Part shown: positions 1,757-31,977 of the stretch, in pieces
Layout: every line of letters begins with the position of its first letter
Numbering within the stretch: the first letter of the stretch is position 1
Virus record (IMG/VR): IMGVR_UViG_3300045988_184596
Coordinates: 1-38,785 of that record
Length of the DNA stretch: 38,785 bases
Source of the DNA: a virus
Strand: one strand, 5' to 3'
Program-made: the position numbers and the translations under genes
The notes under the pieces: model-generated
Database searches by the model: none
What the model was told of the DNA's origin: nothing
Seen by the model: the letters and a program-made list of their open reading frames with translations, nothing else

Positions 1757-2518
1757 TTATGCTACTTCAATTAATGGACCACAATTTACCCAAATTCCAC
1801 CGATTTTCGCAAGGTTCTTTTGTGCGTTGACTTCATCAACACGAATTCTTGTAACGTAGACAACGGCATTTGTGGTATGCAATACGTTATCATTATATCC
1901 ATCAGAGTAGCGAACTTTGTCAACCATACGAATTGGAAACCAACCACCTAATTGTGCAAGGTATGCGCATAAATCGCCATTGATTTGTTTCAATCCTTGA
2001 TTGCCAATCTTCATTTGAACTGATGTTACGTAGCTTCCTGCGTGCAAGATTTGGTCAATTGCTTCTACAGGTTGTGGAATGCTTGGTTTAACTGCTCCTG
2101 TGTTTGCGAAACATTTAGGTCTAAACGCAGTATCAAATGTTGCATAATAAGGCAATTTAATTAAATTGAATGCTCCACCTTTTCCACCTTGATTTTGACC
2201 CAAGAACCATCCTTGCTTTCCGTCAATATCAGAATCAAAGATTGCGATATGTGAGTATGGAGTCCATCCTGCTACTTCTTTAAATACCGCAATGTCTCCC
2301 GGTTGCATAATTGAGACTTCATTACAGTAATTCAAGATACCATTTGTTTTTCGATTGTTCCAAATGTCTTTTACAAATTTGCTTGTTGTACAATGGATAG
2401 CCTTATATCCTAAATCAATCATGTACTTTGTGAATCCGTCCCAACACTGCGCACCATAATATCCGTCAATGTCGAATGCTTTGCCTAATACGGCTTCTTT
2501 AAAACTTTGATAATTTAT
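1757..2518 (-). CDS. CHAP-domain endolysin with C-terminal wall-binding region; proposed ATA start at 2516-2518
   Basis: The frame is open upstream of the ORF-track ATG (2420-2422). It encodes INYQSFKEAVLGKAFDIDGYYGAQCWDGFTKY, carrying the CHAP catalytic Cys. His motif is in YSHIAIFD. AAAGGAGGA lies 10 nt before the ATA. Confidence 0.85.
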   Translation of the reverse strand: MNYQSFKEAVLGKAFDIDGYYGAQCWDGFTKYMIDLGYKAIHCTTSKFVKDIWNNRKTNGILNYCNEVSIMQPGDIAVFKEVAGWTPYSHIAIFDSDIDGKQGWFLGQNQGGKGGAFNLIKLPYYATFDTAFRPKCFANTGAVKPSIPQPVEAIDQILHAGSYVTSVQMKIGNQGLKQINGDLCAYLAQLGGWFPIRMVDKVRYSDGYNDNVLHTTNAVVYVTRIRVDEVNAQKNLAKIGGIWVNCGPLIEVA

Positions 2519-4889: not shown

Positions 4890-5154
4890 AATTCTTATCT
4901 AGATACATTTCTTTTTCACTGCTTTTTCTTGGTGGTAGGACTGCGCTATACTTCTCTACTTCATCATACTTGTTCTTTATTCTTTTGATGATTCTATTCA
5001 CACTAGAAACACTCATATTCAATCTATCGGCTTGTTCTCTGACTGTCCATCCGTATATTCTAGTTCTTAAAATCATTTCTTCATCTTTAGTTAATAAAGC
5101 TAGATTAATAAATTCTTCAAGAATAATCTTATTCCAGGGTACTTGATTCGTCAT
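4888..5154 (-). CDS. sigma-70 region-4-like / LuxR-type HTH small regulator
   Basis: 88 aa. LLTKDEEMILRTRIYGWTVREQADRLNMSVSSVNRIIKRIKNK fits the region 4 HTH pattern. Confidence 0.5.
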   Translation of the reverse strand: MTNQVPWNKIILEEFINLALLTKDEEMILRTRIYGWTVREQADRLNMSVSSVNRIIKRIKNKYDEVEKYSAVLPPRKSSEKEMYLDKN

Positions 5155-5635
5155 TTTCTTGTTCTTCGTTAACGAGTTTATCTGCTACTTCTAATCCTTT
5201 AGTTAATGCTTTTGGTACATTGTAACCACATTGTAATAAATTCTCCATAACGCTACGAGATTCATTAATACATAGCGAAGCTAACACAAACCAACCTAGC
5301 AATGTAGATACATGGAAATCAATTCCTAGAATTTCTCCTACTTCTACTAGAAACGCACTGAATGTGAACGCAACCACAATCATAATCCAATAGCCTAACT
5401 TTTTTAAAACACCTGTCCAACCTTTGTTGCTATTGATTTTATGAGCGATAGCCGATTTCATGCATCCTGTAATATAATCCACTACATTCATAAATAAGAA
5501 GAATGCGAATAAATACCAATGTTCACCTAATACGTATGTTAATACGGCTACGGCAACACCACACATTGCATTAATCTTATCTAGAAAAAACATACTTCTT
5601 GCTATTTGTTTAAATCCTCCATTTTTCTTTTCTAT
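5129..5635 (-). CDS. holin (TcdE / Holin_4_1-like family); proposed ATA start at 5633-5635
   Basis: Several TM segments. KGWTGVLKKLGYW and CINESRSVMENL motifs. TAAGGAG overlaps the ORF-track GTG; an in-frame ATA lies 8 nt after AAGGAG. Confidence 0.75.
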   Translation of the reverse strand: MEKKNGGFKQIARSMFFLDKINAMCGVAVAVLTYVLGEHWYLFAFFLFMNVVDYITGCMKSAIAHKINSNKGWTGVLKKLGYWIMIVVAFTFSAFLVEVGEILGIDFHVSTLLGWFVLASLCINESRSVMENLLQCGYNVPKALTKGLEVADKLVNEEQENDESSTLE

Positions 5636-6662: not shown

Positions 6663-7532
6663 CTATAAACCTAAATACCTTTCATTGTAGTAAACCGTAC
6701 AAGCTAGGTTCGTATCTCCATTGTCTGCCGTATATCCTATGATATTCTCACCCAACTGAATCGTCATATCATTGAATGATGATGTTCTATCAACTTTTCC
6801 GATACAATTCACACCATTCTTTTTGATTGATATAGGCTCAGAAACTAAATCAATTTCTAACACATCACCATTGTGTAGCGTATCTAATACACGAATATAT
6901 TTATCTTTGTTGAATAGTTTCGGATTTGTAACATCTCCAAACGCTTCAATAACGGCTCTGCAATATGTTTCTGTGTCGCCTTGATTATCAATATAGATTT
7001 CTCTAGCGAATGTAAATGTTCCAAAGTTTACGCCTGTTTCCGGTATTTCAAAATTGAACGCTAAACCTTCACCAATTTCTGCGATATTCCTTGCGAAATC
7101 ATCAAATGAAAGCAATAAAGGTTGTGTGCATAGAATTGTAAAGTTAAGCTCTAAATCTTTGTAGATGTTAACTGTAGGCAAGCTATACGCATATAAACGA
7201 CCTCTACAATATTTCTTTTCTCTCATGTACTCAACTATCACATCAAATATATGAGAATATTGGAAGAAGCGCCGTAGCTTCTCCCTTTCTTCTCTTTTTT
7301 CTTCTAGTGAACCTTTAAAGGTAGATTTCACGCTTCTTTCTTTCGTTGGAATACGTGAACCGATTAATCTAGCACCATTTCCGAATGCATTGTCTTGGGT
7401 AGTATACGAAGGTGCTACATAATCAAATCCATCTAATCCGTCACTAGATGGTATTCTCCATCTTTTGTTGTCGATTTCAAATTCTTTGCCATCATCCCTA
7501 CGGACAATAACTCTTACTTTATTGATATCTAT
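6663..7532 (-). CDS. distal tail protein (Dit); proposed ATA start at 7530-7532
   Basis: Frame open for 67 codons upstream of the ORF-track GTG with no ATG/GTG/TTG. GGAGGTG, 7 nt, then ATA overlapping the tape-measure stop (ATAG). Confidence 0.75.
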   Translation of the reverse strand: MDINKVRVIVRRDDGKEFEIDNKRWRIPSSDGLDGFDYVAPSYTTQDNAFGNGARLIGSRIPTKERSVKSTFKGSLEEKREEREKLRRFFQYSHIFDVIVEYMREKKYCRGRLYAYSLPTVNIYKDLELNFTILCTQPLLLSFDDFARNIAEIGEGLAFNFEIPETGVNFGTFTFAREIYIDNQGDTETYCRAVIEAFGDVTNPKLFNKDKYIRVLDTLHNGDVLEIDLVSEPISIKKNGVNCIGKVDRTSSFNDMTIQLGENIIGYTADNGDTNLACTVYYNERYLGL

Positions 7533-10108
7533 TGAACTACACCTCCATATCCATATCTTGCTTGCATTCGTAACATTCTAGCGATTTCATCCGGACTTTG
7601 CGCTTTATTGTAGAAGTTGATAGTTTGTCCATTGTTATTTGTCGTTACGCTTGGCATGATTTGAGCCATATCTTTAGCTACGGCACGAATCCACGCTTTA
7701 TTTTTTTCTAAAGGTACGACTGCTTCTGCCCCATTACCTTCTAATAAACCGATTTGACCACGCTTCAATACACCACCACGTTCTAATCTTGGAATCCTTC
7801 CAATGTGCACTCCGGGAATCTTATTGATGATACCGATTGCGCCGTTAATGCCACCGATAACTCCATTTACCATTCCTTTTACACTTCCAACTAATGAACT
7901 AACTGCTCCTTCAATTCCGCCAAATACACCACCTACAAATCCTTTTAAACCGCTCCATGCATTTTGTATGCCTTGTAGGACATTTGAAATTTTATTCCCT
8001 ACATTATCCATTACGCCTTGAACTTTAGACCAAATGCCATTAAATACATCAGAAACAGTACTCTTAACATTATTGAAATATTTATTGATATTATCAATAA
8101 CACCTTGAACCTTGTCTCTTACCTTGTTCATGGAATCTTGAATCTTACTCCAAATATTGTTTATGATGTCCGAAACCGTCTTAAATAAATTGCTTACGAA
8201 TCCAATAATAGCAGTAACTACTTCGCTAACTTTGCTCCAAATATTCTGAGCAACCGTTAATATTACAGACCAAATATTCGCTACAATTGTAGCTACAATT
8301 TGAACAATAGGCATGATAAAGCCTAGTATTGTTGCAATTGCAGTTCCGACATACGTCACAACCGTATTTATGAATGAAATGATTCCACTTACCACACTTC
8401 CCACAATTTGAAGGATAGATGTTATTACAGGAATCATGCCGATAACTGTTTGAATAATCTTCTTAATAATTGCTAGAATTGGTGGTCCTACTACGCTAAG
8501 AACCTTTTGAGCTTGGTTTACTACATTTTGAATTGCACTGCCTATCTTGCTTAAAATTTCTTTTGCAATAGGTTCAAGTGCAACTTTCATTTCATCAATC
8601 GCTTTTCTGACCTCATCAAAAGCAGGAGCTAACACCTCTGAAACTTGACTTGTCAATTCTGTAATTCCACTTGTATCAATCTTGCTTAATACATTTGAAA
8701 TTACATCACCAACTTTAGCAAATCCTTGTTGAATACCTTGTATAGCTACTGTAATTAATCCGATGATACCTGCAAGAATAGGGGTAATAAGTTCGCCTAT
8801 TGGAGTAAATGAATCAAGAAATGCACGTCCTAAGCCACTTAAAGCATTCTTTAAGCCACCATTTGCAATTTCTTTAACTTTATCCATTGCACCTTCTACA
8901 TCTTTATATTTATTCCCTACTGTCGTTAAGGACTGAATGAATCCGGCGTTGAAATCTTCTCCCATTGTACCGAAAGCCGTTGCCGATTTATTCAACTTTT
9001 CTTGTTCATTTGTAGTCTTTGAAATATCTTCTACAATCGCATTTACAACATCTTTTTGAGTTGCTCTTCCTTCTTGCCAAGCCTTAAAAACATCTTGCGT
9101 CTTGGTATCAAAACTATCCAACGCTCCTTCAATAGTTCCATCAACTAATCTTGTTGTAACTTCGTTAATTGCGTCGTTCACTTTGTCAAGGTTATAAGCT
9201 CCACCGTCTAAACCATTCTGCATTAATTGGAAATATTCATCTGCCGAATATCCTGCTTGTGCGAATTTACCGGAGTATTCTGAAATGTTGTCGCCTAACT
9301 CATCCGACTTATTCAAACCATTCTGAGCACCTGTAGCCATAAGGTCAAACGCTTCTTTAGAAGTGATTCCGAACTGCTTCATTAATTGTTGAGCACCTCT
9401 AAGAGTTTCATTCTCATCCATATCGAATGTGTCTCTTAAAGTTAATAAATCCTCGGTCACGTTCTTTAGGTCAACATCACTTATGCCTTGCATTTGTTGC
9501 TTGACTCTGCCCATCATATCGGCAACATCTGAAACATCTTCACCGAAATTATTTGACCAAACATCACGAGCAATGTTTTTAAATTTGCTCATTTCATTGC
9601 TTGAAGCACCTGTTTGAGCTTGAAATTTAGCCATAGCGTCATCTAATTCAGTAGCTTGATTTACACCTGTCTTAATTGCTAATGCCATTCCACCGATAGC
9701 TCCTGCTACGGCAGTAACACCAACAACACCTCCTACGCCTAATCCTGTTAGGGTTTCAGTGATTGCAGTAGCTTCCGGACTAATATTCTGAATCTTTCCT
9801 AATAGTCCATCAAATCCACCTTGAATTGATTCTAAGGCACTGTTTCCTACTTGTTTAAATACATCAAATTTAGAACCTGTTTCTTGCGTTTCTGTTTGTG
9901 TATTCTTTTGCTCTTCGTTTAAATCTTTAAGTTTATCTTTAATCTTTGGTGGTGCTTTTGAACCATCAGAACCTAGCTTGTCGATTGCTTTTGAAGTTTC
10001 TTTGATAGCATTTGTAGCTCCACTTGTGACTTCATGAACGGATTTCAGTCCATTCTCTAGACCACTTGTATCAATCTTTGTATCAAACTTTAATGTTCCG
10101 TCTGATAT
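7529..10108 (-). CDS. tail tape measure protein; proposed ATA start at 10106-10108
   Basis: Long helical/hydrophobic protein with NIWSK repeats. Frame open for 140 codons upstream of the ORF-track ATG, beginning ISDGTLKFDTKIDTSGLENG. AAAAGGAGGTG lies upstream. Confidence 0.85.
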   Translation of the reverse strand: MSDGTLKFDTKIDTSGLENGLKSVHEVTSGATNAIKETSKAIDKLGSDGSKAPPKIKDKLKDLNEEQKNTQTETQETGSKFDVFKQVGNSALESIQGGFDGLLGKIQNISPEATAITETLTGLGVGGVVGVTAVAGAIGGMALAIKTGVNQATELDDAMAKFQAQTGASSNEMSKFKNIARDVWSNNFGEDVSDVADMMGRVKQQMQGISDVDLKNVTEDLLTLRDTFDMDENETLRGAQQLMKQFGITSKEAFDLMATGAQNGLNKSDELGDNISEYSGKFAQAGYSADEYFQLMQNGLDGGAYNLDKVNDAINEVTTRLVDGTIEGALDSFDTKTQDVFKAWQEGRATQKDVVNAIVEDISKTTNEQEKLNKSATAFGTMGEDFNAGFIQSLTTVGNKYKDVEGAMDKVKEIANGGLKNALSGLGRAFLDSFTPIGELITPILAGIIGLITVAIQGIQQGFAKVGDVISNVLSKIDTSGITELTSQVSEVLAPAFDEVRKAIDEMKVALEPIAKEILSKIGSAIQNVVNQAQKVLSVVGPPILAIIKKIIQTVIGMIPVITSILQIVGSVVSGIISFINTVVTYVGTAIATILGFIMPIVQIVATIVANIWSVILTVAQNIWSKVSEVVTAIIGFVSNLFKTVSDIINNIWSKIQDSMNKVRDKVQGVIDNINKYFNNVKSTVSDVFNGIWSKVQGVMDNVGNKISNVLQGIQNAWSGLKGFVGGVFGGIEGAVSSLVGSVKGMVNGVIGGINGAIGIINKIPGVHIGRIPRLERGGVLKRGQIGLLEGNGAEAVVPLEKNKAWIRAVAKDMAQIMPSVTTNNNGQTINFYNKAQSPDEIARMLRMQARYGYGGVVQ

Positions 10109-11069: not shown

Positions 11070-11576
11070 TTATACTTCTGATGTGCCTTCTGTAAATGTT
11101 ACTGCTCCATCTGCTACCCTTGCAGTACCGACACGAATGTCGCTTGCAAAGTTAATGTTGAAGTTGATTTTTGAATCAACACCACTTAATGTGTCGAAAA
11201 TTAATTTAGCGTCAACTTCCCACGCTTTATAGCCTTTAGTTTTGTCTCCGTCAAACATAAATACAAGTAAAGCTTTTGTATTTACTTCTTCGTTGTTTGG
11301 TACGGATTTCATCATTTGTTCGTAAATGTATTCAAAATCATCTTCGCCTTTAATCATTGTTAAATCTTGCGAAATCTGAGGTGAATAACTCTTTAATGAT
11401 TCTGTTGGGTTCTTATCTGCGATAAAGTCATACGTTTCAGTTTCACTATTGAATGAAATATCTAAAGTTGTAGACTTTTTAATTCGCTTGTAACCTTCTC
11501 CCATTTGTAAGAACAATCCAATCATATACTTCTTGACTGTTTGTCCTGTAGTTACTTCAGTTCCTTGAGTTGCTAT
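11070..11576 (-). CDS. major tail protein; proposed ATA start at 11574-11576
   Basis: Position and size. Frame open for 17 codons upstream of the ATG, encoding IATQGTEVTTGQTVKKY. AAAGGAG, 8 nt, then ATA GCA overlapping the upstream TAA. Confidence 0.7.
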   Translation of the reverse strand: MATQGTEVTTGQTVKKYMIGLFLQMGEGYKRIKKSTTLDISFNSETETYDFIADKNPTESLKSYSPQISQDLTMIKGEDDFEYIYEQMMKSVPNNEEVNTKALLVFMFDGDKTKGYKAWEVDAKLIFDTLSGVDSKINFNINFASDIRVGTARVADGAVTFTEGTSEV

Positions 11577-13134: not shown

Positions 13135-13239
13135 CTATTTTTCTTTTTGAGGTTTAGCTTCCTCTTTTTTTGTTTGAGGTTTACCTTTTTTAGGCTTTTC
13201 AACTTTAGAAGGATAACCCCATCCGATTTCTTTCGCCAT
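13135..13239 (-). CDS. 34-aa lysine-rich peptide
   Basis: My translation: MAKEIGWGYPSKVEKPKKGKPQTKKEEAKPQKEK. TAATG overlap with the capsid stop. Confidence 0.3.
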   Translation of the reverse strand: MAKEIGWGYPSKVEKPKKGKPQTKKEEAKPQKEK

Positions 13240-14108
13240 TACTTAGCACTAGCAGATAAGTAAATACCTGCTACCTTATTTTGGTATACATCGACGATTC
13301 CATATTTACGATATTTTAATACATCTGAATCTGATTCAATGTTATTTCTTGCCGGAATTACATTTGAAACGGTGTGTTTATCCCATTTCATGACGGCAGG
13401 TTTATGAACAATCAAGAAGTTGATTACGTGTCCATCCTCCGCTTTTTCGTATCCGCCATCTAACTCTGTATCTTTTCCACTCAACAATTTGATTTTTGTG
13501 TAAAAACGACTTGCGGGTACAGGAACAACTTTTGCAAATCCTTGTAAAGCTTCACGAGATTTGTAAGTGTCCAACGCCTTAACGCTATTTAATAATGTTG
13601 GTGTTGAATACAAGATACGTTGTTCGCTAGGAACTTCATCCTCATCCATTTTAGTGATAGCCGTTAATAATGCGCTCAAGAACTCTTCTGCACCTGTATA
13701 ATCTTCTGAAACCTTTGTGATTCCTGTTGTTCCGGCAATCTTAGCGAATGTGTAAGCGTCTGCTTCCGGTGCAACCTTTGTACGCATTAACTCCGCTCCT
13801 GCCATGCCAAACGCAATATTCATTGATTCTGCGTTATCTTGTGTATCAACTGAGATTTTAGTTCCTCGGTCATAGTCGAATGTAGCAGTTTTCCATTCTA
13901 ACTTAACTGAGTTACCTGTATAACCACTGTTTCTATCGTAGTTTCCTAAACCTTTAACAGAAATTTGTGGATAAATGATTTCTTTTGCGTTTGCTCCTGC
14001 TCGTACCATTGTAGCGTCTGCGTTTAAATCACCTGTAACTGAAGCTAACTTATATACCTCATCCAAATTTGAGACATACGTTTTAGCTAATGCAATTTCA
14101 TTTGGTAT
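13239..14108 (-). CDS. major capsid protein; proposed ATA start at 14106-14108
   Basis: Position after the scaffold. The N-terminus IPNEIALAKTYVSNLDEVYKLAS is coded upstream of the ORF-track TTG. AAGGAGGA, 8-9 nt, then ATA. Confidence 0.8.
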   Translation of the reverse strand: MPNEIALAKTYVSNLDEVYKLASVTGDLNADATMVRAGANAKEIIYPQISVKGLGNYDRNSGYTGNSVKLEWKTATFDYDRGTKISVDTQDNAESMNIAFGMAGAELMRTKVAPEADAYTFAKIAGTTGITKVSEDYTGAEEFLSALLTAITKMDEDEVPSEQRILYSTPTLLNSVKALDTYKSREALQGFAKVVPVPASRFYTKIKLLSGKDTELDGGYEKAEDGHVINFLIVHKPAVMKWDKHTVSNVIPARNNIESDSDVLKYRKYGIVDVYQNKVAGIYLSASAK

Positions 14109-18719: not shown

Positions 18720-19015
18720 GTAATCACTTCCTTATTCAATACTCTATATACCTTTGTTGTCTTGATAGGAGAAGCAATAGCAACTCCGCCTTTTGTAATC
18801 ATTCTTAATTGAATGTTACAAGTTCCCTCTTTGAAATTGAGCGTTTCTTCTTGGCTTAACAACACTGAAATAGTATTTCCTTCAATGTCTAAATCACTTG
18901 ATTCTTTTTTCAAGATATATCCGTTCTGTTCAAATACCACATAGATATTCTGCATTTCATTTAAATCAATATCATTTATTGTGATTTGAATTGTTGGCGT
19001 AGTTCCTTGTCTCAT
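18716..19015 (-). CDS. hypothetical beta-rich fibre-module protein
   Basis: AAGGTGAAATC then ATG at 19013-19015 (ATGA overlap). MRQGTTPTIQITINDIDL.. Confidence 0.5.
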   Translation of the reverse strand: MRQGTTPTIQITINDIDLNEMQNIYVVFEQNGYILKKESSDLDIEGNTISVLLSQEETLNFKEGTCNIQLRMITKGGVAIASPIKTTKVYRVLNKEVIT

Positions 19016-19821
19016 GATTTCACCTTGTAAGTCCAATCTTTACCTACTTCACCTTTATCAACTTCATACGCCCAATCTGCTAGAATCTCATGACCATTCT
19101 CATCCACTAATGTTCCATCTTCTGTTAATAGAATTGTAGTGAAATGATTCTCCATAATCATCTTTTCAATATTGGAAATTCTGTTCGATAGCTTTCCTGC
19201 CGTATTTGCGTCTAACGTATCTTTTACAGTTTCAAACCAATCATTGAACTCTGTTCTATTCGCATTCATTTCAGATTCATTCTGAGTTTTAATTTCTTTG
19301 AATAACTCAGTAACTTGAGTGAATAAATCCAACGATTGTACGCTCTTAATAGCGCTTGTAACTGCTCCACAACGTGTAGAATCTAATCTTGTATCAGTAA
19401 TATCTGAACCTTTAACTTCGCTTGCGTTTCCTGTCACCGTTACCGTAGCTAATACTAAATCGTAAATAGAATCACTTCTTGTGATTCCATCATTAATATC
19501 ACTTGCTACTAAGGTAATGTTTCTGTATGCGTCATTATCATTCAATCTAAGAATAATATTGTAGCTTTTAGTAGCGCTATTCTTTTCTAGTGTGATGGTT
19601 TCGTCATCTTTCTGCCAATAGAACGCTCCATTAATATTTGCTCGTCCTGCCTTAACTGTAAGTGTTAAGCCTTGAGCTTTCTCAACTCTTAAATGGTCTG
19701 AACTAGAATCATCTACGAATACGCCATTTGTAAAGTAGCTTGAGAATAATCTTCTAAAAGCGTAATATAATACTAATCTATCGCCATTTCTTGATACAAA
19801 TGGAAAATATGTAGTTGCTAT
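19012..19821 (-). CDS. virion structural / fibre-anchor protein; proposed ATA start at 19819-19821
   Basis: Frame open for 92 codons upstream of the ORF-track TTG, encoding IATTYFPFVSRNGDRLVLYYAFRRLFSSYFTNGVFV... ATA GCA overlaps the portal stop (ATAG). Confidence 0.7.
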   Translation of the reverse strand: MATTYFPFVSRNGDRLVLYYAFRRLFSSYFTNGVFVDDSSSDHLRVEKAQGLTLTVKAGRANINGAFYWQKDDETITLEKNSATKSYNIILRLNDNDAYRNITLVASDINDGITRSDSIYDLVLATVTVTGNASEVKGSDITDTRLDSTRCGAVTSAIKSVQSLDLFTQVTELFKEIKTQNESEMNANRTEFNDWFETVKDTLDANTAGKLSNRISNIEKMIMENHFTTILLTEDGTLVDENGHEILADWAYEVDKGEVGKDWTYKVKS

Positions 19822-21221
19822 TCTTCGTCATCCCCCTCTCCATCATCTTGAATTTCTTCATTTAATAACTCCGTTGCTTCTTCTTCAGTAAAGCCGTATT
19901 GTTTCATGAAGTACATGATTTTTAATCTTGGAATATCAAATGTTAATGCGTCATTTCTTAACGCTTGTGCGGTACTTTGTTTATCCTCGATATATGTATC
20001 GTCATAATCAATTGCAATATCTAATGAATTGATATTAAGCTTTCTGCCTTGTGTTAATTCATAGAAGTATGCTATTGCTTGAATGATATCTTGAATATAT
20101 GCAGTAGATTCTTTACGTTGTGAATTTACTTCTTTCATTGCGTCTTGATTTTCGCCGATATATTCTGTAGCCGTTACGATTCTTCCACTTTCAAACGTGT
20201 ATTTTTTTGTACCGAATCCAAACATCATTGATAAGATACTTAACGCAGTTTCTAACGATTGCACAACCTCTTGAGTTCTAACTGTTGGATTGTATTCTTG
20301 CCATAAAGCTTTTTCTTCCGGAAGCTTATCTCTACCTAACTGAACGAATATCTTTTTCATTTGTGGATTCATCTTAATCTTTCCATTCTCGTCTTTCTGC
20401 ATTAATGCTTCATTCACAAGAACGATTTTATCTGATTTCAACAAATCACGATTCCACATTGTCATTGTTAAATCGATTGTTTTCAATGGAGCAATTGCGC
20501 TCCAAATCTTCGGCAAGCCGTAACCTTGCATTTGTAAGTTGTTTACCTTTGCGTTTCTCATAATTGCAAACGGCTTTACAACATCTAATTGAACAATCTG
20601 AGCACGGTCTTTTATTTCTTCGCCTGTATCTTTGAAGTAATGTGTTTCTGCAATGTATCTTTCGTCTTGTCCTTTTAAGAACATGACCATCACATATACT
20701 TTTTTTAACTTCTCATAATTTACTCCAACGAAAGCAACTTCCACAATTTCATCATTGATAACAGTTAATGGAAGGATATTCATTGAATCACAATAGTTGA
20801 TTCTGATTTCTCCTCCACTGAATGTACCATCTTCATAAATCTCGGCATTTGATACCGTCACATAAGCTCCTACCGTACCATTTGCAGACATTTGCTCAAC
20901 TTGTTTCCTGTACATTACATCAAATCTATTCTTCGTTAGAATGTCTGAGATAATGTCATTTGTAACGCTATCCTCTGTAGCGTTTATATCTAGGATTTCA
21001 ATTAAGTTTGCGTCATCCTCGCATAAACGCTTTGCGAAGTCTGTTTTGTCTAGCGTGTATTCCTCATTGTTCAAGGTATATGCCGTATGAAATTCTGTTT
21101 CGGTATTTGTGTACCACTTGTTACACAATTCAATAATCTCAATTGCGTTAGTATCTACATAATACCCTCTTTCGTTAAGGTAGTTTTGAAACCACGGTCT
21201 ACGTGTGTTAGATGTTTCTAT
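19818..21221 (-). CDS. portal protein; proposed ATA start at 21219-21221
   Basis: Size and position after TerL. Frame open for 31 codons upstream of the ORF-track TTG. AAGGAGGT, 5 nt, then ATA immediately after the TerL stop. Confidence 0.8.
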   Translation of the reverse strand: METSNTRRPWFQNYLNERGYYVDTNAIEIIELCNKWYTNTETEFHTAYTLNNEEYTLDKTDFAKRLCEDDANLIEILDINATEDSVTNDIISDILTKNRFDVMYRKQVEQMSANGTVGAYVTVSNAEIYEDGTFSGGEIRINYCDSMNILPLTVINDEIVEVAFVGVNYEKLKKVYVMVMFLKGQDERYIAETHYFKDTGEEIKDRAQIVQLDVVKPFAIMRNAKVNNLQMQGYGLPKIWSAIAPLKTIDLTMTMWNRDLLKSDKIVLVNEALMQKDENGKIKMNPQMKKIFVQLGRDKLPEEKALWQEYNPTVRTQEVVQSLETALSILSMMFGFGTKKYTFESGRIVTATEYIGENQDAMKEVNSQRKESTAYIQDIIQAIAYFYELTQGRKLNINSLDIAIDYDDTYIEDKQSTAQALRNDALTFDIPRLKIMYFMKQYGFTEEEATELLNEEIQDDGEGDDEE

Positions 21222-21224
21222 TTC

Positions 21225-22562
21225 TTACCTCCTTAAATCTATATATCCACTATGTGTGATAAATGTATAGCAGAACGAATCCCAATCATCATTGATATTG
21301 TTTACGTTCTCATCTTTTGGAATGTCTTTCTTTTCATCCCATACTAATTCGCTCAATACGTTTATTAAATTCTTACAATGTTCCTCTATCTTTAACCTTC
21401 CCGTAACAAGTAAGCTATCAACTGTTATAGGACGGTCTGTAAGCTCATTCTTCTTAACTGGTGCAATTATACTTCCGTCTAATCCTTCGGCGTAAAAATA
21501 AGCTCTAAGCGTGTTTATCAACGTATTAGAAGCACTGTCCGGAAATATCCATTCTACATATCCGTAACATTCAATACAACGCTTATAGAATCTTACAAAT
21601 GCTTTGCAGAACTTTGTTGCGTCTATTGCATTTGACTTTGCCATGTCGCCTTCATCAAGTGCCCACATATAATCCCAATCATTTGTGAACCCTGTTAAAT
21701 GCCATGAATACTTTGAGCCATTGTCTCCAAAGTCAACACCTATGATTAAATGACTAAACCTTTTTCCTTTTTCTTTCATCTTTTCTTTTAGACTCTGATA
21801 TTTGAATAGGTAAGGTTTGCAGTCATTTGCAAAATAAGGGAATACAAGTCCTTCGGCAACCATTCTTTCACCTAGAATATCTCGCTTGTACCATACTGAA
21901 TTCATATCATATTTGTTTTGGATTTCTTCGATTCTTTCTTGGCTCATTGTAGCATTGTCAAAAATGTTGAAGTGCTCATATCTGTACCAATCTAACCCCA
22001 TGAATTTATCTATGTAATTCTTATAAATGTCTGCGTTTGGGTTTGATGGGTTTAAATCCCATAATGTAAATGGATGTACACTTGCAATCTGTCTTGCCAT
22101 TGCTACCTTGATAAAGCTTGTTCTAGAATCCTCACAATCGTAATGCTCATTTATTTCGGTGGCAATCCATCCTCCATATGAGTTACCTAATATGCTCTTA
22201 TATGAATCAGACTTCCCACCACCTGTGAATATAACAATCTTTTCGCCTGTCTTTGTTTGAATAAATAGTGCTTCGTTTGATTTGTATTTACCCCAACGAC
22301 AACGTCCACGAAAGATATGCTCTAAGCCGAAACCATTGCAATCACCTATATTTAATTTCGCATTTGGTAAGCTTGAACCACTCGCTAAATGTATTTTATC
22401 TTCACATGTTTCTAAATACATTGAAAAGATTATGCAGTGGTCAATCGTTTTACCACTTCGTACCGCTCCTTCTGCTACACTTTGTTTGTAATTTAGGGCG
22501 GTCTTAATATAGTTCTTGTGTTTATCTGAAAATTTCCCCCAAGGAATCGTTCTAGTCATCAT
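21225..22562 (-). CDS. terL: terminase large subunit
   Basis: Walker A GAVRSGKT. 445 aa. ATG coupled to the TerS stop. Confidence 0.9.
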   Translation of the reverse strand: MMTRTIPWGKFSDKHKNYIKTALNYKQSVAEGAVRSGKTIDHCIIFSMYLETCEDKIHLASGSSLPNAKLNIGDCNGFGLEHIFRGRCRWGKYKSNEALFIQTKTGEKIVIFTGGGKSDSYKSILGNSYGGWIATEINEHYDCEDSRTSFIKVAMARQIASVHPFTLWDLNPSNPNADIYKNYIDKFMGLDWYRYEHFNIFDNATMSQERIEEIQNKYDMNSVWYKRDILGERMVAEGLVFPYFANDCKPYLFKYQSLKEKMKEKGKRFSHLIIGVDFGDNGSKYSWHLTGFTNDWDYMWALDEGDMAKSNAIDATKFCKAFVRFYKRCIECYGYVEWIFPDSASNTLINTLRAYFYAEGLDGSIIAPVKKNELTDRPITVDSLLVTGRLKIEEHCKNLINVLSELVWDEKKDIPKDENVNNINDDWDSFCYTFITHSGYIDLRR

Positions 22563-22900
22563 TTTAATAAATCTGCCAAAGGTGTTAAATCCTCAATCTC
22601 ATGTGTCATTGTTTGCTCAACCTTTTCGGTCTGTCCAAGCATTTGTTTACCTAACCAAATAAGCATGGTCGTATTCCCTTTTGAAGCTTTGTCAAATTGC
22701 ATACGTCTTAAACTTCTTTTTGAGTGGCTTATACCTTTTTTATATGTCTGACAAAACTTTCTATTTCTTAATAATGTTCTTACCGAACATCCTAGGAAAT
22801 CTGCAATTTCTTCTTGAGTACATCCAATAGAAGCAAGCTTTTCAACTGCTTCATAATCAATCTTTATTCTTGGGCGTCCTCCTGCGTGTTTCTCTGCTAT
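22559..22900 (-). CDS. terS: terminase small subunit; proposed ATA start at 22898-22900 (ORF-track ATG at 22922-22924 lacks an SD)
   Basis: AEKHAGGRPRIKIDYEAVEKLASIGCTQEEIADFLG HTH. GGGGGT, 6 nt, then ATA GCA, starting 1 nt after the stop of 22902..23051. Confidence 0.7.
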   Translation of the reverse strand: MAEKHAGGRPRIKIDYEAVEKLASIGCTQEEIADFLGCSVRTLLRNRKFCQTYKKGISHSKRSLRRMQFDKASKGNTTMLIWLGKQMLGQTEKVEQTMTHEIEDLTPLADLLK

Positions 22901-23051: not shown

Positions 23052-24351
23052 GTCTTGCTTCTTCTGTTTCAAGTTCTGTAATCTCCTCTGTTCTTTTTAA
23101 GAATGTTACTGAATTATCATATTCGTAAATGATGTCATTATTTTCATCAAATCCTACAGGCTTTAGAACCTTTTCAAAAATCTTATAAGGTGATTGTCCT
23201 GCTTTTGGTGAATTCCATAAATAATGCAGATAATCTTTCATTGTCATTCCTGCATATTTCGCCCTAGCTTCTGATGTATTTGTATTGAAACCAACCGCTT
23301 TGTTACGCTCAAAGTCTAAGAAGTACATATCCTTTTCAATATCTTTCCAATGTACTCTTCCATGTTTCTTTGCAATTTGTAAAGCTCCACTAAAGTTTCC
23401 TCTTGAGTAATCCCAATTCTTATTTAATGCACAACAACAACAATTATTTGAGCATTCTTTAAAGTGTGCGTCTGATACATAGAATCGCATACCTAATTCA
23501 TCACATAGCTCTTTCATCTTTTGAATGTATTTAGCCTTTACTTTTCTGTTAAGTCTTAAATATCCACTTCCATTTGAATGTTTTCTATAGAAATCTACAA
23601 TATCAAACCCTGCACATTCACTAATCACATCATAATGCTCCTTAGCTTGTTTAATAGAGCGCATTTCTAAGCAAAAGAACTCTGTAGTAACCGCAGTAGC
23701 TCCTGCCTTTTTGGCTTCTCTAATTAAATCTAGATAGGTTTTATCTGATACTCCTACAATAAACGGACGCAATCTTAAAGTTGCACCACCTTTTGATAGT
23801 TCAGTATATTTTTTCATTGCTTCAAGTCTTTTTCTTGGACTTGGAACACCTACTTCGATTTTTCTCGCGTCCTCTTCATCTAGTGTGATGATACTAAACT
23901 TAACATTCCAATTGTCTGCACCTTTGAATAATTCTTGATATTTAGGGTCGTTAAATACCCATGCCGATTTCGTACTAAAACAGATAGGATAGTTAATAGA
24001 TTTCAAATATTTTAGCATTTCATAGGTTTTACCATATTTCTTTTCATATCCGTCGAATTGGTCTGATAAACCACCATATTGAATAGGACGTCTGTCTTTA
24101 ATGTATTTATAGAATTGCGATTTTGTATCTTCTCCACTGAAAATCTTTTTGCATTTCTCAACATTGATACATTTCACATCTTTATTAAGATATGCTTCTT
24201 TACTTGCACCAATACCTCTTTGATATTGGCTAAAACAATAAACACATCCAAATGAACAGTTGGAATATGTATCAAATGTTACCGGTAATGAGCAATCCGC
24301 AATTTCTCCTGTCCATCTTGGTGATTGATATGTCTCACTGATTTTATTCAC
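23044..24351 (-). CDS. radical SAM protein (SplB / COG1533 DNA-photolyase-like fold) with a C-terminal Cys cluster
   Basis: CSFGCVYC = CxxxCxxC near the N-terminus. Later CSNNCCCC. GGAGGA, 6 nt, then GTG. Confidence 0.7.
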   Translation of the reverse strand: MNKISETYQSPRWTGEIADCSLPVTFDTYSNCSFGCVYCFSQYQRGIGASKEAYLNKDVKCINVEKCKKIFSGEDTKSQFYKYIKDRRPIQYGGLSDQFDGYEKKYGKTYEMLKYLKSINYPICFSTKSAWVFNDPKYQELFKGADNWNVKFSIITLDEEDARKIEVGVPSPRKRLEAMKKYTELSKGGATLRLRPFIVGVSDKTYLDLIREAKKAGATAVTTEFFCLEMRSIKQAKEHYDVISECAGFDIVDFYRKHSNGSGYLRLNRKVKAKYIQKMKELCDELGMRFYVSDAHFKECSNNCCCCALNKNWDYSRGNFSGALQIAKKHGRVHWKDIEKDMYFLDFERNKAVGFNTNTSEARAKYAGMTMKDYLHYLWNSPKAGQSPYKIFEKVLKPVGFDENNDIIYEYDNSVTFLKRTEEITELETEEARHV

Positions 24352-24352
24352 C

Positions 24353-25120
24353 TTATATCCTCCATTTTCTTTTAATAATTAAGTTATTTCCTCTAATTGT
24401 TACCATGTCATCATATTTTCTTTTCAATAAATTTAGATATTGCTTTTGTAGGTTTGTAGTTTTATATATTTCATAATATCCACCTTTTTCTTTTCCCATT
24501 CTTGCTTTATTTGCAATAATGGTGTTATTGCGTGCTATAATTTGTCCTTGCCTTATTAATCTAAGACATAACTCATAATCATCTAAGATTTTCATTTTTT
24601 CATCATATGCAATCTTGTTATTTTTTATAATGAAATTAAATCCGCCTTGTAAAAGCGTGTTATATGAATATTGTTCACCTGTCCTATTTAGCTTTGAAAT
24701 GTTCATTTTATTATCGGTTGATATTACACCGGCATAATTGATTCCGTTTTTTTGCATAAAATCAAATATCTTTTTAACTTCACGCTCAAAGTTATTTGTC
24801 AAATTTATTAAACGCCCACATTTAGTTTCTGAACATTCATGCCATTTTTGAAAGCTCCTTATATCATCATCTAACAATAGTATTTTTGAACCATCTTCAA
24901 ATTGATTTAGGCATGTATTCCTATTGAATGATACATACATACCTTCTCTTAAAATGATTCTCGCTCGGCTTCCTAAATTCTGCCTGTAAGCTTTATAATC
25001 ATTTGAATCATTTAAACATACAACGATTCTTTCATCTTCAATCCCACATTCTTTTAGTGCGTGATATGTTTTACATTTTGGTCTATGGTAACTAGCTATT
25101 GCATAATAGATGTTATTCAT
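24353..25120 (-). CDS. GT-A-like (DXD) nucleotide-sugar transferase-like protein
   Basis: N-terminal YAIASYHRP resembles the GT2 IPxYNR motif. ILLLDDDI is a DXD motif. Confidence 0.4.
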   Translation of the reverse strand: MNNIYYAIASYHRPKCKTYHALKECGIEDERIVVCLNDSNDYKAYRQNLGSRARIILREGMYVSFNRNTCLNQFEDGSKILLLDDDIRSFQKWHECSETKCGRLINLTNNFEREVKKIFDFMQKNGINYAGVISTDNKMNISKLNRTGEQYSYNTLLQGGFNFIIKNNKIAYDEKMKILDDYELCLRLIRQGQIIARNNTIIANKARMGKEKGGYYEIYKTTNLQKQYLNLLKRKYDDMVTIRGNNLIIKRKWRI

Positions 25121-25694
25121 GCATTAATTCCTTGATGTCGTAGCACACTTTTAATTCAGTTACCTGCAAGAGTTTCTCTAAGAATAGTTGCTCTTCCTCT
25201 GTTTCATATGTAATGATTACACGTTGCTTTTTTAACATATCTTCAGAATGCTCACTAAACATATCCATAAGCTCGTTATCATATCCTTCTGCTTCCATAT
25301 CCTCAGTTAATGCACTAATCTCAAAATCGCCGAATCCGAAATCTCTCATATCGATTCCGTCAATCTCTTCAAGCTCTTCCATTTCTGTTTTTAATGCGTC
25401 TAAATCCCACGAAGCTTTTTCTGCCGTTTTATTATCTGCAATTCTAAATGCTTTTACTTGCTCATCTGTTAAATCATCTGCAACCACACAAGGAACAGTT
25501 TCTAAGCCTAATTCTTGACTAGCTTTATATCGTGTATGACCTGCAACAATAACTCCATCTTTATCAATAACAATAGGAACTTTGAAACCGAATTCCTCAA
25601 TAGAATTTTTAACAAATTTCACCGCTCCATCATTGATTCTAGGGTTATTCTCATAAGGTTTTAGCTCATTTAATCTTTTTTCAACAATATTCAT
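25113..25694 (-). CDS. ParB N-terminal-domain (ParB/Srx fold) protein lacking the usual methyltransferase fusion
   Basis: AAGGAGGAGAAT then ATG at 25692-25694. LKPYENNPR...IVAGHTRYKASQELGLETVPCVV..FRIADNK. Confidence 0.7.
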   Translation of the reverse strand: MNIVEKRLNELKPYENNPRINDGAVKFVKNSIEEFGFKVPIVIDKDGVIVAGHTRYKASQELGLETVPCVVADDLTDEQVKAFRIADNKTAEKASWDLDALKTEMEELEEIDGIDMRDFGFGDFEISALTEDMEAEGYDNELMDMFSEHSEDMLKKQRVIITYETEEEQLFLEKLLQVTELKVCYDIKELMHE

Positions 25695-25712: not shown

Positions 25713-25737
25713 AAAAGAACCGAGACAAACGCTCGGT
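25713..25737 (-). terminator. terminator downstream of the tRNA
   Basis: Minus strand ACCGAG-CGTTTGT-CTCGGT followed by TCTTTT. Confidence 0.6.
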
Positions 25738-25819: not shown

Positions 25820-25895
25820 TGGTTGCAGGAGAAGGATTTGCACCATTCGACCTCTAGCTAATAAGACTAGTGAGCTACTACTGCTCTATCCTGCT
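25820..25895 (-). tRNA. initiator-like tRNA with anticodon UAU (reads AUA), CCA encoded
   Basis: Hand-folded cloverleaf: AGCAGGA-TA-GAGC-AGTAGTA-GCTC-A-CTAGT-CTTATTA-GCTAG-AGGTC-GAA(T)GG-TGCAAAT-CCTTC-TCCTGCA-A-CCA. See findings for its initiator-like and atypical features. Confidence 0.7.
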
Positions 25896-25901
25896 AAAAC
25901 A

Positions 25902-25910
25902 ATTATTACA
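25902..25910 (-). promoter_or_regulatory. candidate extended -10 (TGTAATAAT) for the tRNA
   Basis: Hexamer AATAAT ends 6 nt upstream of tRNA position 1. Confidence 0.35.
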
Positions 25911-25912
25911 TG

Positions 25913-25934
25913 AAAAAATGCTCACATTGTGAGC
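25913..25934 (-). terminator. terminator at the end of the early operon
   Basis: Minus strand GCTCAC-AAT-GTGAGC followed by ATTTTTT. Overlaps the stop of 25922..26248. Confidence 0.55.
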
Positions 25935-26248
25935 ACTTTCTTTAAGCTCTTATTTATTTTTCTTGGAATCTCTTCTCGAGCATAACCTACAATATTAGAT
26001 GTCTTTTCTGCACTGAATCCCTTTATATATCTATACTCAATCATTGTACGAGTTGTATCATCAAGTTGGCTTAATTTATCTTTTACATAATTCATTCTTC
26101 TTGCATAATCTGCATGAGCCAAGAATAGCTCGGCTTTTAAAGGATAAATAGCTTCATCCCTTTGTAGCTCTGCTATCTTTTGCTCATAATATGTGTATGA
26201 TTGACATTCGCACAAAAAGTGTCTCTTAATATCTTCATATGTGCTCAT
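25922..26248 (-). CDS. ArpU/RinA-like late-gene transcriptional regulator (sigma region-4-like)
   Basis: 108 aa. TRTMIEYRYIKGFSAEKTSNIVGYAREEIPRKINKSLKK. Last gene of the early block. Confidence 0.5.
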   Translation of the reverse strand: MSTYEDIKRHFLCECQSYTYYEQKIAELQRDEAIYPLKAELFLAHADYARRMNYVKDKLSQLDDTTRTMIEYRYIKGFSAEKTSNIVGYAREEIPRKINKSLKKVLTM

Positions 26249-26448
26249 GATGTATACATCCTTATTAATCTATCTTCTAATTCGCCAACTTTATTCTTTA
26301 ATTTATTAATTTCATGTGTTTGATTATTAATTGTTTCATTTCTTTCTTTTAAAATCTGATTAAGCTTAATATTCGCCCTTCCAAGTCTATTGTTTTTAGA
26401 AATTAACTCTTTAATCCTTTCTTCATAATTCATTTCTATTAAAACCAC
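26245..26448 (-). CDS. hypothetical coiled-coil protein (start ambiguous: GTG 26446, ATA 26437, ATG 26431)
   Basis: GGAGGTG overlaps the GTG. The ATA is 6 nt and the ATG 12 nt after the SD. Confidence 0.5.
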   Translation of the reverse strand: MVLIEMNYEERIKELISKNNRLGRANIKLNQILKERNETINNQTHEINKLKNKVGELEDRLIRMYTS

Positions 26449-26451
26449 CTC

Positions 26452-26934
26452 CTAAAATGGTAAATCATCTGAAGCAATATCTAAATCACTTCCATCATTA
26501 TATTCTTGTTGCGCAATTTGTTGTGTTAAGCTTGGTTGCGTATATGTGTTTTGAACGCCGTAAGTGTTGTTATTCACTTGATATGGTTGTTGGTATGTAT
26601 TTACATTAGGATTGTAATTCTGCCCATTAGAAGCGTTTTTAGGTGGCAATTGCACGTTATAAGCTACAATCTCAGTAATGTAAACTTTTTGCCCTTGTTG
26701 ATTCTCATAATTTCTAACACTGATTCTTCCTTCTACTGTAACTAAATCACCTTTCTTGCAATACATATTTACAATATCGGCTAATTTATTCCATGCTACG
26801 CAATTAATAAAATCTGTATTATCATTGATTCCATTTACTGCTACTGTAAATTTTGCTACGCTATTTCCTTTTTGTGTTTTAGACAACTCAATATCTTTAG
26901 TTAAGTGTCCTGCTATTACTGCTACATTAATCAT
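26452..26934 (-). CDS. ssb: single-stranded DNA-binding protein
   Basis: OB-fold N-terminus MINVAVIAGHLTKDIEL, Q/N/Y-rich linker, C-terminal DDLPF tip. Confidence 0.9.
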   Translation of the reverse strand: MINVAVIAGHLTKDIELSKTQKGNSVAKFTVAVNGINDNTDFINCVAWNKLADIVNMYCKKGDLVTVEGRISVRNYENQQGQKVYITEIVAYNVQLPPKNASNGQNYNPNVNTYQQPYQVNNNTYGVQNTYTQPSLTQQIAQQEYNDGSDLDIASDDLPF

Positions 26935-31245: not shown

Positions 31246-31977
31246 CTACGCTCTTAATATTTCTTTCCTTACTCGTTCCATTTCTTTCTGTACATCTGCA
31301 TACGATTGATTGCTTTCTTGTGCATAGAATTTAGAATCAAGTTTAACAGGATTGTTCTTATTTCTTTTCATCCATTCATCATGTACCCACTTTTGAATCA
31401 CTAGTGAATGGTTCTTATATTTCTTTCCACTCGTTTCAATATATTCATCTAATATCTTTATATGCTCATCTAATGAATCACCATATAAATCTAATAGGTG
31501 TGTGTGTTCTTTATCTGTAAGTAACACGTGTTGAAATTCTCCGTATTTATGTTTGTGCGTACATACATTAATATTATTTTTATTTAATTCATTTTTAGTT
31601 GAATTATTATTTAATTTAATAGGGTTTAGATTTTCTAATTTTAGATTTTCTATTTTTAGATTTTCTATTTTTAGATTTTCTAAATTCCGAGGATTGTCTA
31701 TTAATGTATATTGCCAATCAACAATTAAATTACCTTCTCTAATAGGTTCACGAATTAAATATCCTTTATTCATTAATTCTTTTAAACCGGAACGAACACT
31801 TGATATTCCATCTGTAGCTAATGCTTTAATACTGTTTTCCTTAAAGTCCCAATTATCCGGAAGGCTTAACATTTGGCAAAACAAGCCTTTTGCTTTATAG
31901 GATAGTTCTCTATCGTGAAATATTTCATTGTTAACGTGTGTATACCCACTTTGTAGGCTTTTCTTTAGTTCTGCTAT
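31246..31977 (-). CDS. replication initiator / replisome organiser (DnaD-like winged helix N-terminus); proposed ATA start at 31975-31977
   Basis: N-terminus ..GYTHVNNEIFHDRELSYKAKGLFCQMLSLPDNWDF.. is typical. GGGGGTG overlaps the ORF-track GTG. ATA GCA lies 6 nt after the SD and 1 nt after the RusA stop. Confidence 0.65.
   Translation of the reverse strand: MAELKKSLQSGYTHVNNEIFHDRELSYKAKGLFCQMLSLPDNWDFKENSIKALATDGISSVRSGLKELMNKGYLIREPIREGNLIVDWQYTLIDNPRNLENLKIENLKIENLKLENLNPIKLNNNSTKNELNKNNINVCTHKHKYGEFQHVLLTDKEHTHLLDLYGDSLDEHIKILDEYIETSGKKYKNHSLVIQKWVHDEWMKRNKNNPVKLDSKFYAQESNQSYADVQKEMERVRKEILRA
31626..31685. repeat. four tandem 15-bp iterons (TTAGATTTTCTAWWT) inside the initiator gene; candidate origin
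   Basis: Direct reading. Translated as ENLKIENLKIENLKLENL. Flanked by an AT-rich stretch at 31561-31625. Confidence 0.75.

Follow-up and report, generated by a model that had tools for sequence, protein, structure and literature searches.

Does a phage carry an initiator tRNA of its own, made for a start codon other than AUG? The question is raised by a tRNA gene at positions 25820..25895 (minus strand) of the viral record IMGVR_UViG_3300045988_184596, which was analysed over its whole stretch of 38,785 nucleotides (nt), hereafter the window. The window represents a temperate prophage of siphovirus type (~38.8 kb, 29-36% G+C), almost all of whose genes are encoded on the minus strand, and its tRNA is built like the bacterial initiator tRNA-fMet but has the anticodon UAU. 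The original prediction, made from the sequence alone, had proposed a dedicated non-AUG initiator. This proposal has gained support from the initiator signature of the tRNA, from a set of genes that appear to start with ATA, and from the co-occurrence of the two; the support is strong at the level of sequence and stops short of a demonstration. We consider it probable that the gene encodes a dedicated AUA-reading initiator tRNA, borne by the phage and second to that of the host.

A tRNA gene of initiator type with anticodon UAU

25820..25895, minus strand: initiator-like tRNA gene with anticodon UAU, A1xA72 and encoded CCA, identified by Rfam family RF00005, covariance model R1 and covariation

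Read from 25895 to 25820 on the minus strand, the gene has the sequence AGCAGGAUAGAGCAGUAGUAGCUCACUAGUCUUAUUAGCUAGAGGUCGAAUGGUGCAAAUCCUUCUCCUGCAACCA (76 nt). The cloverleaf with encoded CCA, at first folded by hand, was recovered by the Rfam tRNA model RF00005, which covers positions 25895..25823 from end to end (model positions 1-71 of 71; 48.8 bits, gathering score 29, E = 1.3e-7) and gave the sole Rfam match within the window. With its own covariance model, R1, the tRNA scores 94.2 bits.

All initiator-type features listed in the original prediction are present. The acceptor stem begins with the mismatch A1xA72, followed by G2:C71 and C3:G70, and ends with A73 and the encoded CCA; the pair 4:69 is A:U, so that the minor formyltransferase element G4:C69 is missing. 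The D arm GAGC-AGUAGUA-GCUC contains A11:U24, and the variable loop is AGGUC. The listed deviations were found as well. In the T arm, GAA(U)GG-UGCAAAU-CCUUC, the loop ends in the expected CAAAU, with one U bulged in the stem and G at position 55. The anticodon arm CUAGU-CUUAUUA-GCUAG has the predicted loop with anticodon UAU and U37, and its stem includes A29:U41, G30:C40 (the only G:C pair) and U31.G39.

The resemblance to initiator tRNAs is borne out by realignment. In a common alignment, E. coli metY and a Collinsella initiator show 65.4% and 70.5% identity, respectively, to the window tRNA. The E. coli elongators metT, ileV and ileX reach 51-53%, and all three carry C11:G24 where the window tRNA has A11:U24. 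Sister lineages (see below) are 74-75% identical to metY, and the nearest phage-database matches of the tRNA are all annotated tRNA-Met. The conserved elements of the tRNA family coincide with the initiator mark R11:Y24 and with the determinants of methionyl-tRNA formyltransferase, i.e. unpaired 1:72, G2:C71, C3:G70 and A73, with G4:C69 as a minor element (PMC9976931). Formylation is set by the tRNA, independently of the attached side chain (PMC9976931). By these comparisons, the window tRNA is initiator-like, not elongator-like. As it fails two defining features of initiators, having UAU in place of the CAU anticodon and lacking the three consecutive G:C pairs (29:41, 30:40, 31:39), while showing most of the others, it is best called an initiator-derived variant. 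The best reading is that it descends from a bacterial tRNA-fMet whose anticodon changed from CAU to UAU.

The same anticodon could be explained differently, namely by an ordinary elongator tRNA-Ile(UAU) of the tRNA-Ile3 type that supplements AUA decoding, with the ATA starts being weakly read by the host initiator. Such elongators exist in Mycoplasma mobile, Bifidobacterium, Neorickettsia and Lactobacillus, where they read AUA without lysidine. A UAU anticodon would read AUA in the phage too, the IleRS (isoleucyl-tRNA synthetase) of lactic acid bacteria charges tRNA-Ile(UAU), the phage is AT-rich and the program ARAGORN labels sister copies tRNA-Ile. However, the phage tRNA differs from these elongators in three respects: it has the initiator versions of the paired 1:72, of Y11:R24 and of A37, the base that bears t6A in tRNAs for ANN codons. 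In E. coli, a 1:72 mismatch like the one conserved here is an anti-determinant for EF-Tu. Across lineages, identity to metY (65-75%) is also higher than that to the elongators metT, ileV and ileX (47-56%). We return to this alternative with the codon usage.

Homologues and selection on the tRNA

Homologues were gathered by pattern scans of viral and metagenome contigs and from contigs reached via truncated portal gene calls. More than 100 loci were found, with 13 distinct tRNA sequences that fall into several lineages.

Lineage A (window type): altered elbow with A18, G55 and a T-stem bulge
Lineage A' (L054/L091; L056 and others; members with ATA starts are L056, L070, L091 and L094): window-type acceptor stem, canonical GG D loop, T loop UUCAAAU, bulge absent
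Lineage B (L020/L063): C1xA72
Amedibacillus lineage (L145, isolate genome of Amedibacillus sp. YH-ame6): A1xA72
Lineage L146: A1:U72, paired
Lineage L147: C1xA72, all three G:C pairs, loop CUUAUUU
Lineage C (L053): A37
Lineage D (L059/L097): A37

On the 13 distinct homologues, 95.6% of the stem cells are paired, and 17 of the 21 stem pairs have changed on both sides, with compensatory changes in all four stems. None of 500 shuffles reached the observed pairing, and with slid partners it dropped to 39-55%. In the window's own family alone, the anticodon stem is either CUAGU/GCUAG or UCGGU/GCCGA, which amounts to three compensatory double changes. This pattern indicates that the window tRNA is under selection as a tRNA. 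Position 1:72 is unpaired (AxA or CxA) in 11 of the 13 lineages, and G2:C71, C3:G70, A73 and A11:U24 are kept in all 13. G30:C40 is kept in 12/13 and U31.G39 in 10/13; variant A5 has two anticodon-stem G:C pairs and L147 has all three. The loop sequence CUUAU is invariant or nearly so, and each of the six lineages with ATA starts keeps U37.

Could the gene nevertheless be a decaying relic, i.e. a captured host initiator gene or an attachment-site remnant that mutated (C34->U, odd elbow) and lost its function? The compensatory changes in all four stems speak against this, as do the loop CUUAUU, identical in six lineages with differing stems, the fixed position at the head of the late genes, and the presence of the tRNA in 31 of 31 testable close relatives. 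On the side of decay stand G55, A18 and the T-stem bulge, the failure of ARAGORN to call the window copy, and a folding energy no better than that of shuffles (thermodynamic folding of the single sequence is unremarkable, z = -0.96). The elbow changes are, however, coupled. Compared with the canonical-elbow sister (L054:7948-8002), G18/U55 became A18/G55 while G19:C56 was kept, and the bulged base of lineage A is variable (U, C, or a shifted A). For these two reasons the lineage A elbow looks like tolerated drift rather than decay, and this form is the commonest one, retained alongside intact ATA starts. Degenerate UAU initiator copies do occur elsewhere (L040a in a Collinsella metagenome-assembled genome, and a 3' fragment in L057) and lend the relic explanation some colour. 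On balance, we regard it as highly improbable. The elbow difference between the window lineage and L054 is possibly tolerated or adaptive.

As for the degenerate copies themselves, the Collinsella assembly L040 (93-171; 2004-2080) contains a near-identical second initiator copy 2 kb apart, with C34->U and a disrupted 5' acceptor strand; this UAU copy looks like a pseudogene or an assembly artefact. L057 (3523-3577) and L067 contain 3' fragments of an initiator-type tRNA with UAU, the former without a matching 5' half, and these could be attachment-site-like remnants. A pattern scan of genome contigs returned only three matches, all of high G+C (Thermoleophilia, Terracidiphilus, Collinsella). 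These, like the high-G+C copies on viral contigs L002/L018, were not counted as the same system, as no SD-ATA starts (ATA behind a Shine-Dalgarno sequence, SD) were found in their available sequence. A Megablast search of 50,697 phage records gave no match, either to the locus or to 25 kb of the window, and offers no cultured relative.

Genes starting with ATA

Next to the tRNA, the original prediction had pointed to many genes whose only plausible start is ATA. Eleven to twelve genes of the window indeed have a strong SD sequence followed by ATA, with no usable canonical start. We scanned for orphan SD sites, meaning strong SD sequences from which, at spacing 3-11, neither ATG, GTG nor TTG opens an open reading frame (ORF) of at least 60 codons; an in-frame stop at most 12 codons upstream was also required. 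Eleven such sites were present in the window. In nine of them an in-frame ATA follows at spacing 6-11, while composition alone would give about 12%, a rough estimate that was not computed. Inspection added three ATA starts, those of a head protein (19821), of the distal tail protein Dit (7532) and, probably, of the small terminase subunit TerS (22900). The genes are listed below in the order of the minus strand, with SD sequence and spacing where noted.

31246..31977, minus: replication-initiator-like gene of the early region; GGGGGTGA, 6 nt, probable ATA, rival GTG within the SD; ambiguous
26245..26439, minus: gene of 64 amino acids (aa); AGGAGG, 8 nt, ATA, in-frame GTG inside the SD, ATG two codons downstream
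22559..22900, minus: small terminase subunit (phrog_309); GGGGGT, 6 nt, probable ATA, N-terminus IAEKHAGGRP
19818..21221, minus: portal, 467 aa (phrog_533); AAGGAGG, 6-7 nt, ATA one codon past an in-frame stop
19012..19821, minus: head protein, 269 aa (phrog_1220); ATA, the only canonical start (TTG) would cost 92 residues
17770..18378, minus: late protein, 202 aa; AGGAGG, 7 nt, ATA
13239..14108, minus: major head protein, 289 aa (phrog_422); AAGGAGG, 9-10 nt, ATA
11070..11576, minus: late tail-region protein, 168 aa (phrog_3099); ATA
7529..10108, minus: tape measure, 859 aa; ATA directly after an in-frame TGA
6663..7532, minus: distal tail protein Dit, 289 aa; ATA overlaps the tape-measure stop as ATAG
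5129..5635, minus: holin-like protein, 168 aa; AGGAG, 8 nt, ATA, in-frame GTG inside the SD
1757..2518, minus: endolysin, 253 aa (phrog_291); AAGGAGG, 10-11 nt, ATA

Profile alignments of four proteins begin at residues 2-10 only if ATA is the start: phrog_422 aligns residues 3-288 of the major head protein to profile positions 3-294 of 297, phrog_1220 residues 3-224 of the head protein to positions 8-248, phrog_291 residues 2-78 of the endolysin to positions 5-86, and phrog_3099 residues 10-167 of the tail-region protein to positions 4-169 of 171. An ATG start would remove 32 residues of the endolysin catalytic domain. In the portal gene, the first canonical start lies 31 codons downstream of ATA, and the conserved N-terminal motif FQNYLNERGY precedes any canonical start; the lineage B portal, read from ATA, begins IENCIRNFLQKQGY, each position of which has its counterpart in MENCVKAFL..GY of ATG-started homologues. 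The first 140 codons of the tape measure are free of in-frame ATG, GTG and TTG. Dit homologues are 279-288 aa long, and the canonical GTG start would yield only 222 aa. As for TerS, an alternative ATG lies upstream at 22924 and has no SD; the gene is clearly ATA-started in L020/L063, L145 and L147.

The start codons are also conserved. Despite variable spacers, ATA is found in 29 of 29 relatives at the 26439 site and in 22 of 22 relatives at the portal start. At 18378, nine relatives have ATA and two have ATG, at the identical position behind the same SD. Taken together, the orphan sites, profile alignments and conservation indicate that the ATA starts are real and conserved, and the earlier claim holds. 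Ten of the twelve, nine being confident, belong to the packaging, head, tail and lysis genes that lie downstream of the tRNA.

Upstream of three ATA starts, at a distance of 9 nt, lies an in-frame GTG (26448, 31986 and 5644), where it is part of an extended SD (GGAGGTG or GGAGTG) and has no SD of its own; ORF finders choose it as the start. Where the ATA overlaps the upstream stop as ATAG or ATAA (7529-7532; 19818-19821), the arrangement is an ATA analogue of ATGA coupling. An ATA at 22867 was rejected as a start, since relatives have either ATA or GTA there and the site is internal to terS. In the phage family, the stored portal product has 436 aa rather than 467 aa (protein cluster P0031, 1406 members), and public calls of head, tail, lysis and terminase genes are likewise systematically truncated at the N-terminus. 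ATA initiation would explain this systematic error.

Co-occurrence of the tRNA and ATA starts

In five more lineages (A', B, L145, L146 and L147) the tRNA closely precedes terS or the late genes, and each of them has SD-ATA starts for TerS, the portal, the head protein or the tape measure. Among close portal relatives, the tRNA is present in 31 of 31 with at least 4.7 kb of upstream flank; seven without a match have shorter flanks. The related phages L148 and L149 (G+C 0.33 and 0.32, portals 50-52% identical) lack such a tRNA and have SD-ATG portals and zero SD-ATA orphans, although L148 shares with the window phage the ParB_N-TAGT module described below. Host flanks (~10 kb) gave no SD-ATA orphan and four unrelated gut phage records zero or one doubtful case. 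To the extent that sequence can tell, a link exists between the tRNA and the ATA starts, with strict co-occurrence in the lineages for which enough sequence was available.

The two might still be independent. The host, a member of the Erysipelotrichaceae (relatives of the Mollicutes), might tolerate AUA starts with its own tRNA-fMet, and the phage tRNA might be, for example, a nuclease-resistant replacement or a decoy for an initiator tRNA that host anticodon-loop nucleases attack. This would fit the anticodon loop and the 31:39 pair, both different from canonical initiators, and the use of ATA by only a part of the gene set, so that the phage continues to depend on the host initiator; evasion of tRNA-targeting defences has reportedly been proposed for phage tRNAs whose anticodon loops are altered. 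But a replacement initiator would be expected to keep CAU, as that of L150 does, and C34->U makes sense only with matching codons. Tolerance by the host also does not account for the lack of SD-ATA orphans in the low-G+C relatives L148 and L149 and in the host flank, nor for the strict co-occurrence. Independence therefore seems improbable to us. In L150, a relative of higher G+C, the initiator-like tRNA (7652-7728) is located between the minor-capsid and scaffold genes, has CAU, three G:C pairs, C1xA72 and no encoded CCA, and the phage has no ATA starts, using ATG.

Codon usage and start-codon context

If the tRNA served to supplement AUA-Ile decoding in an AT-rich genome, which the original prediction had named as the mundane alternative, the genes downstream of it should show a raised demand for this codon. 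Codon usage does not support this. AUA makes up 14.8% of Ile codons in late genes, as against 14.1% in host flank genes, 28.5% in early genes and 32% in the tRNA-less L148; there is thus no excess of internal AUA in the late genes, where it is not above the host level and below that of the early genes and of L148. An elongator would, moreover, leave unexplained why SD-ATA starts are restricted to carriers of the tRNA. Together with the structural differences described above, this makes an ordinary elongator tRNA-Ile(UAU) quite improbable.

The sequence around the starts was compared on 85 unique ATA-start contexts from ~20 gene families; many of these contexts are orthologous and so not independent. 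At position -1, 95% of them have A and 5% have G, with C and T entirely absent, whereas at ATG starts of the same loci this base is A in 61%, T in 25%, C in 8% and G in 6%. Conserved U37 probably adds a fourth base pair with the purine at mRNA position -1, which would compensate for the three weak A-U pairs. The +4 base is G in 76% of the ATA-start contexts and in 28% of ATG starts, for which we offer no explanation.

A model for initiation at AUA

We propose the following model, built on the reading that the phage encodes a dedicated, second initiator. The tRNA would be transcribed from the head of the packaging, morphogenesis and lysis block and charged by a host synthetase. This would most likely be IleRS, which reads A35, U36 and A73; methionyl-tRNA synthetase is disfavoured by the loss of C34, and some Bacillota IleRS enzymes accept the UAU anticodon. 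The host methionyl-tRNA formyltransferase would then formylate the tRNA through its unpaired 1:72, G2:C71, C3:G70, A73 and A11:U24. Initiation factor IF2 would deliver it to the 30S P site, where it would pair with AUA 6-11 nt after a strong SD, and G30:C40 would act as the minimal anticodon-stem signal for passage to the 70S ribosome. In E. coli, initiation at AUA by the native initiator reaches 0.1-1% of that at AUG, and initiators with mutated anticodons start at matching codons, with the amino acid specified by the new anticodon (PMC11744186). As the host initiator reads AUA so poorly, we propose that the ATA genes are efficiently translated only when the phage tRNA is present. AUA would then be a private start codon and the tRNA a translational gate on virion and lysis genes. 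A gate on the lytic late programme is our best guess, since ATA starts are concentrated in packaging, virion and lysis genes and the tRNA heads this block after a candidate late activator (see below).

A more specific form of the model is tentative, and we would put it somewhat below even chances: that this is a natural case of orthogonal initiation, in which an Ile-charged, formylated second initiator, encoded by phages of Erysipelotrichaceae, reads R(-1)AUA through bases U34 to U37 and locks the lytic programme. If so, virion and lysis proteins would begin with (formyl-)Ile and would be made only after expression of the tRNA, a start-codon counterpart of stop-codon recoding.

Several observations weigh against the proposed initiator role or complicate it. 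We know of no precedent for U37 among initiators. The identity elements of E. coli IleRS are C4:G69, U12:A23, C29:G41 and t6A37; all are absent from the window tRNA, and charging by IleRS is uncertain for this reason. Position 1:72 is paired in two lineages (A1:U72 in L146, U1:A72 in L053). No convincing ATA starts were seen within the available short loci of the low-G+C lineages C (L053) and D (L059/L097), which have A37, nor in those of the UAU copies of high G+C. The early/middle region, upstream of the tRNA, has two or three possible ATA starts (26439, 31977) that fit a strictly late-only gate badly; both of these sites have an SD-embedded in-frame GTG as a possible alternative start. The window copy has the non-canonical elbow (A18, G55, 1-nt T-stem bulge), which may reduce its function. 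The Rfam covariance model gave the clear match described above, and ARAGORN called no tRNA in the window. The miss is plausibly due to the odd T arm, although the sister copy in L005, which has the same T arm and differs only in the anticodon stem, was called tRNA-Ile(tat); given the Rfam match and the covariation, we do not count it against the existence of the tRNA. Finally, two of the three canonical G:C pairs are missing, and 31:39 is U.G (Y:R), where natural variants have R:Y. The lone pair is less serious than it seems, as an E. coli initiator can function with G30:C40 as its sole G:C pair of the three, and au/GC/gu initiators occur naturally in mycoplasmas (PMC5389676).

Comparison with known systems

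To our knowledge, all described bacterial and phage systems use a single CAU initiator species and read non-AUG starts by mismatch. The full-text literature that we searched described engineered non-AUG initiators and elongator tRNA-Ile(UAU), but no natural non-CAU initiator of a phage or bacterium; its coverage was incomplete and so gives no proof of novelty, but within it the earlier statement that such a tRNA had not been described for a phage stands. The system would be the first natural example of the orthogonal initiation that synthetic biologists have built, and would add a layer of phage gene control at the start codon. It opens questions about the requirements for IF3, IF2 and formyltransferase, about helix extension at position 37, and about the effect of a non-Met N-terminus on virion proteins. 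A cultured carrier is available (Amedibacillus sp. YH-ame6, GCA_053848845.1).

The closest relative is bacterial tRNA-fMet itself (E. coli metY/metZ), with which the phage tRNA shares the unpaired 1:72, G2:C71, C3:G70, A73, A11:U24 and G30:C40, the D arm GAGCAG..GUAGCUC, the variable loop AGGUC and the T loop ending CAAAU. It differs by UAU, U37, U31.G39, fewer G:C pairs and, in the window lineage, the altered elbow, and also in being phage-encoded and additional to the host initiator.

Engineered initiators, such as the amber tRNA-fMet(CUA) and i-tRNA(AAC), follow the same principle, in that an anticodon change alone shifts initiation to the matching non-AUG codon behind an SD; they are still formylated, and are charged by the synthetase that reads the new anticodon (PMC11744186). 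Whereas these are laboratory constructs, the phage system would be natural, is conserved across several lineages, would serve a dozen native genes, and has the additional U37 and U31.G39.

Stop-codon recoding by phages with phage-encoded suppressor tRNAs has reportedly been described by Borges et al. in 2022. There too, a phage tRNA alters codon reading and the codon is concentrated in structural and lysis genes, which suggests a translational gate on the late programme. The present case shows the same trait of late-gene recoding, as the codon cognate to the phage tRNA is used unusually, mainly in structural and lysis genes. However, it concerns the start codon, the P site and a tRNA of initiator type, as opposed to the stop codon, the A site and an elongator-type suppressor. 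The meaning of internal AUA would be unchanged in the phage, and the ORFs are intact under table 11.

Mammalian mitochondrial tRNA-Met (f5C34) reads AUA as a start and as Met, a natural AUA initiation by a tRNA that pairs with it as cognate. There, a single tRNA with a modified CAU serves both roles under a changed code, in contrast to the extra, dedicated initiator with an encoded UAU proposed here. A passage of PMC11775629 also mentions non-AUG mitochondrial starts.

Prophage setting and neighbouring elements

The gene order of the prophage is integrase, early and replication genes, a 108-aa ORF, the tRNA, a module of ParB_N, TAGT and 435-aa protein genes, terminase, portal, head, tail and lysis genes. 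The following features belong to the surroundings of the tRNA:

37688-38785: integrase
26452-26934: SSB, in the early and replication region
25922..26248, minus: 108-aa ORF immediately upstream of the tRNA (phrog_1740, phrog_36; weak, E ~4e-4)
25919..25935: palindromic G+C-rich hairpin GUGCUCACAAUGUGAGCAUUUUUU with a minus-strand T-run, terminator-like, between the regulator gene and the tRNA
25902..25910, minus: -10-like box TGTAATAAT, ending 6 nt before tRNA position 1, -35 box absent
25719..25737, minus: intrinsic-terminator-like hairpin ACCGAGCGUUUGUCUCGGU followed by UCUUUU, between the tRNA and the first downstream gene

The 108-aa ORF is a candidate late-gene activator with weak similarity to sigma factors and phage transcriptional regulators. 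The hairpin between it and the tRNA is also found upstream of the tRNA in L054. A sigma-70 scan found no full promoter near the tRNA, the -10-only box having been read by eye; in L145, L146, L020 and L053 the tRNA is preceded by TATAAT-like boxes at a distance of 6-8 nt, and the box of the window is possibly an activator-dependent tRNA promoter. On the 3' side, a comparable hairpin and T-run follow the tRNA in L020, L145 and L147.

Identical proteins occur on human-gut metagenome contigs, where the prophage adjoins aroB, aroC, aroA and tyrA. Exact-sequence clusters of these host proteins are named Holdemanella sp. and Solobacterium sp. (Erysipelotrichaceae). Between the tRNA and terS (23044-25694, minus) lie three genes that look like a DNA-modification module; they encode a protein with a ParB_N domain, the TET-associated glycosyltransferase TAGT (PF20691) and a protein of 435 aa that weakly resembles radical-SAM proteins; at the matching place, L148 has ParB_N, TAGT and a UDP-glucose dehydrogenase-like gene.

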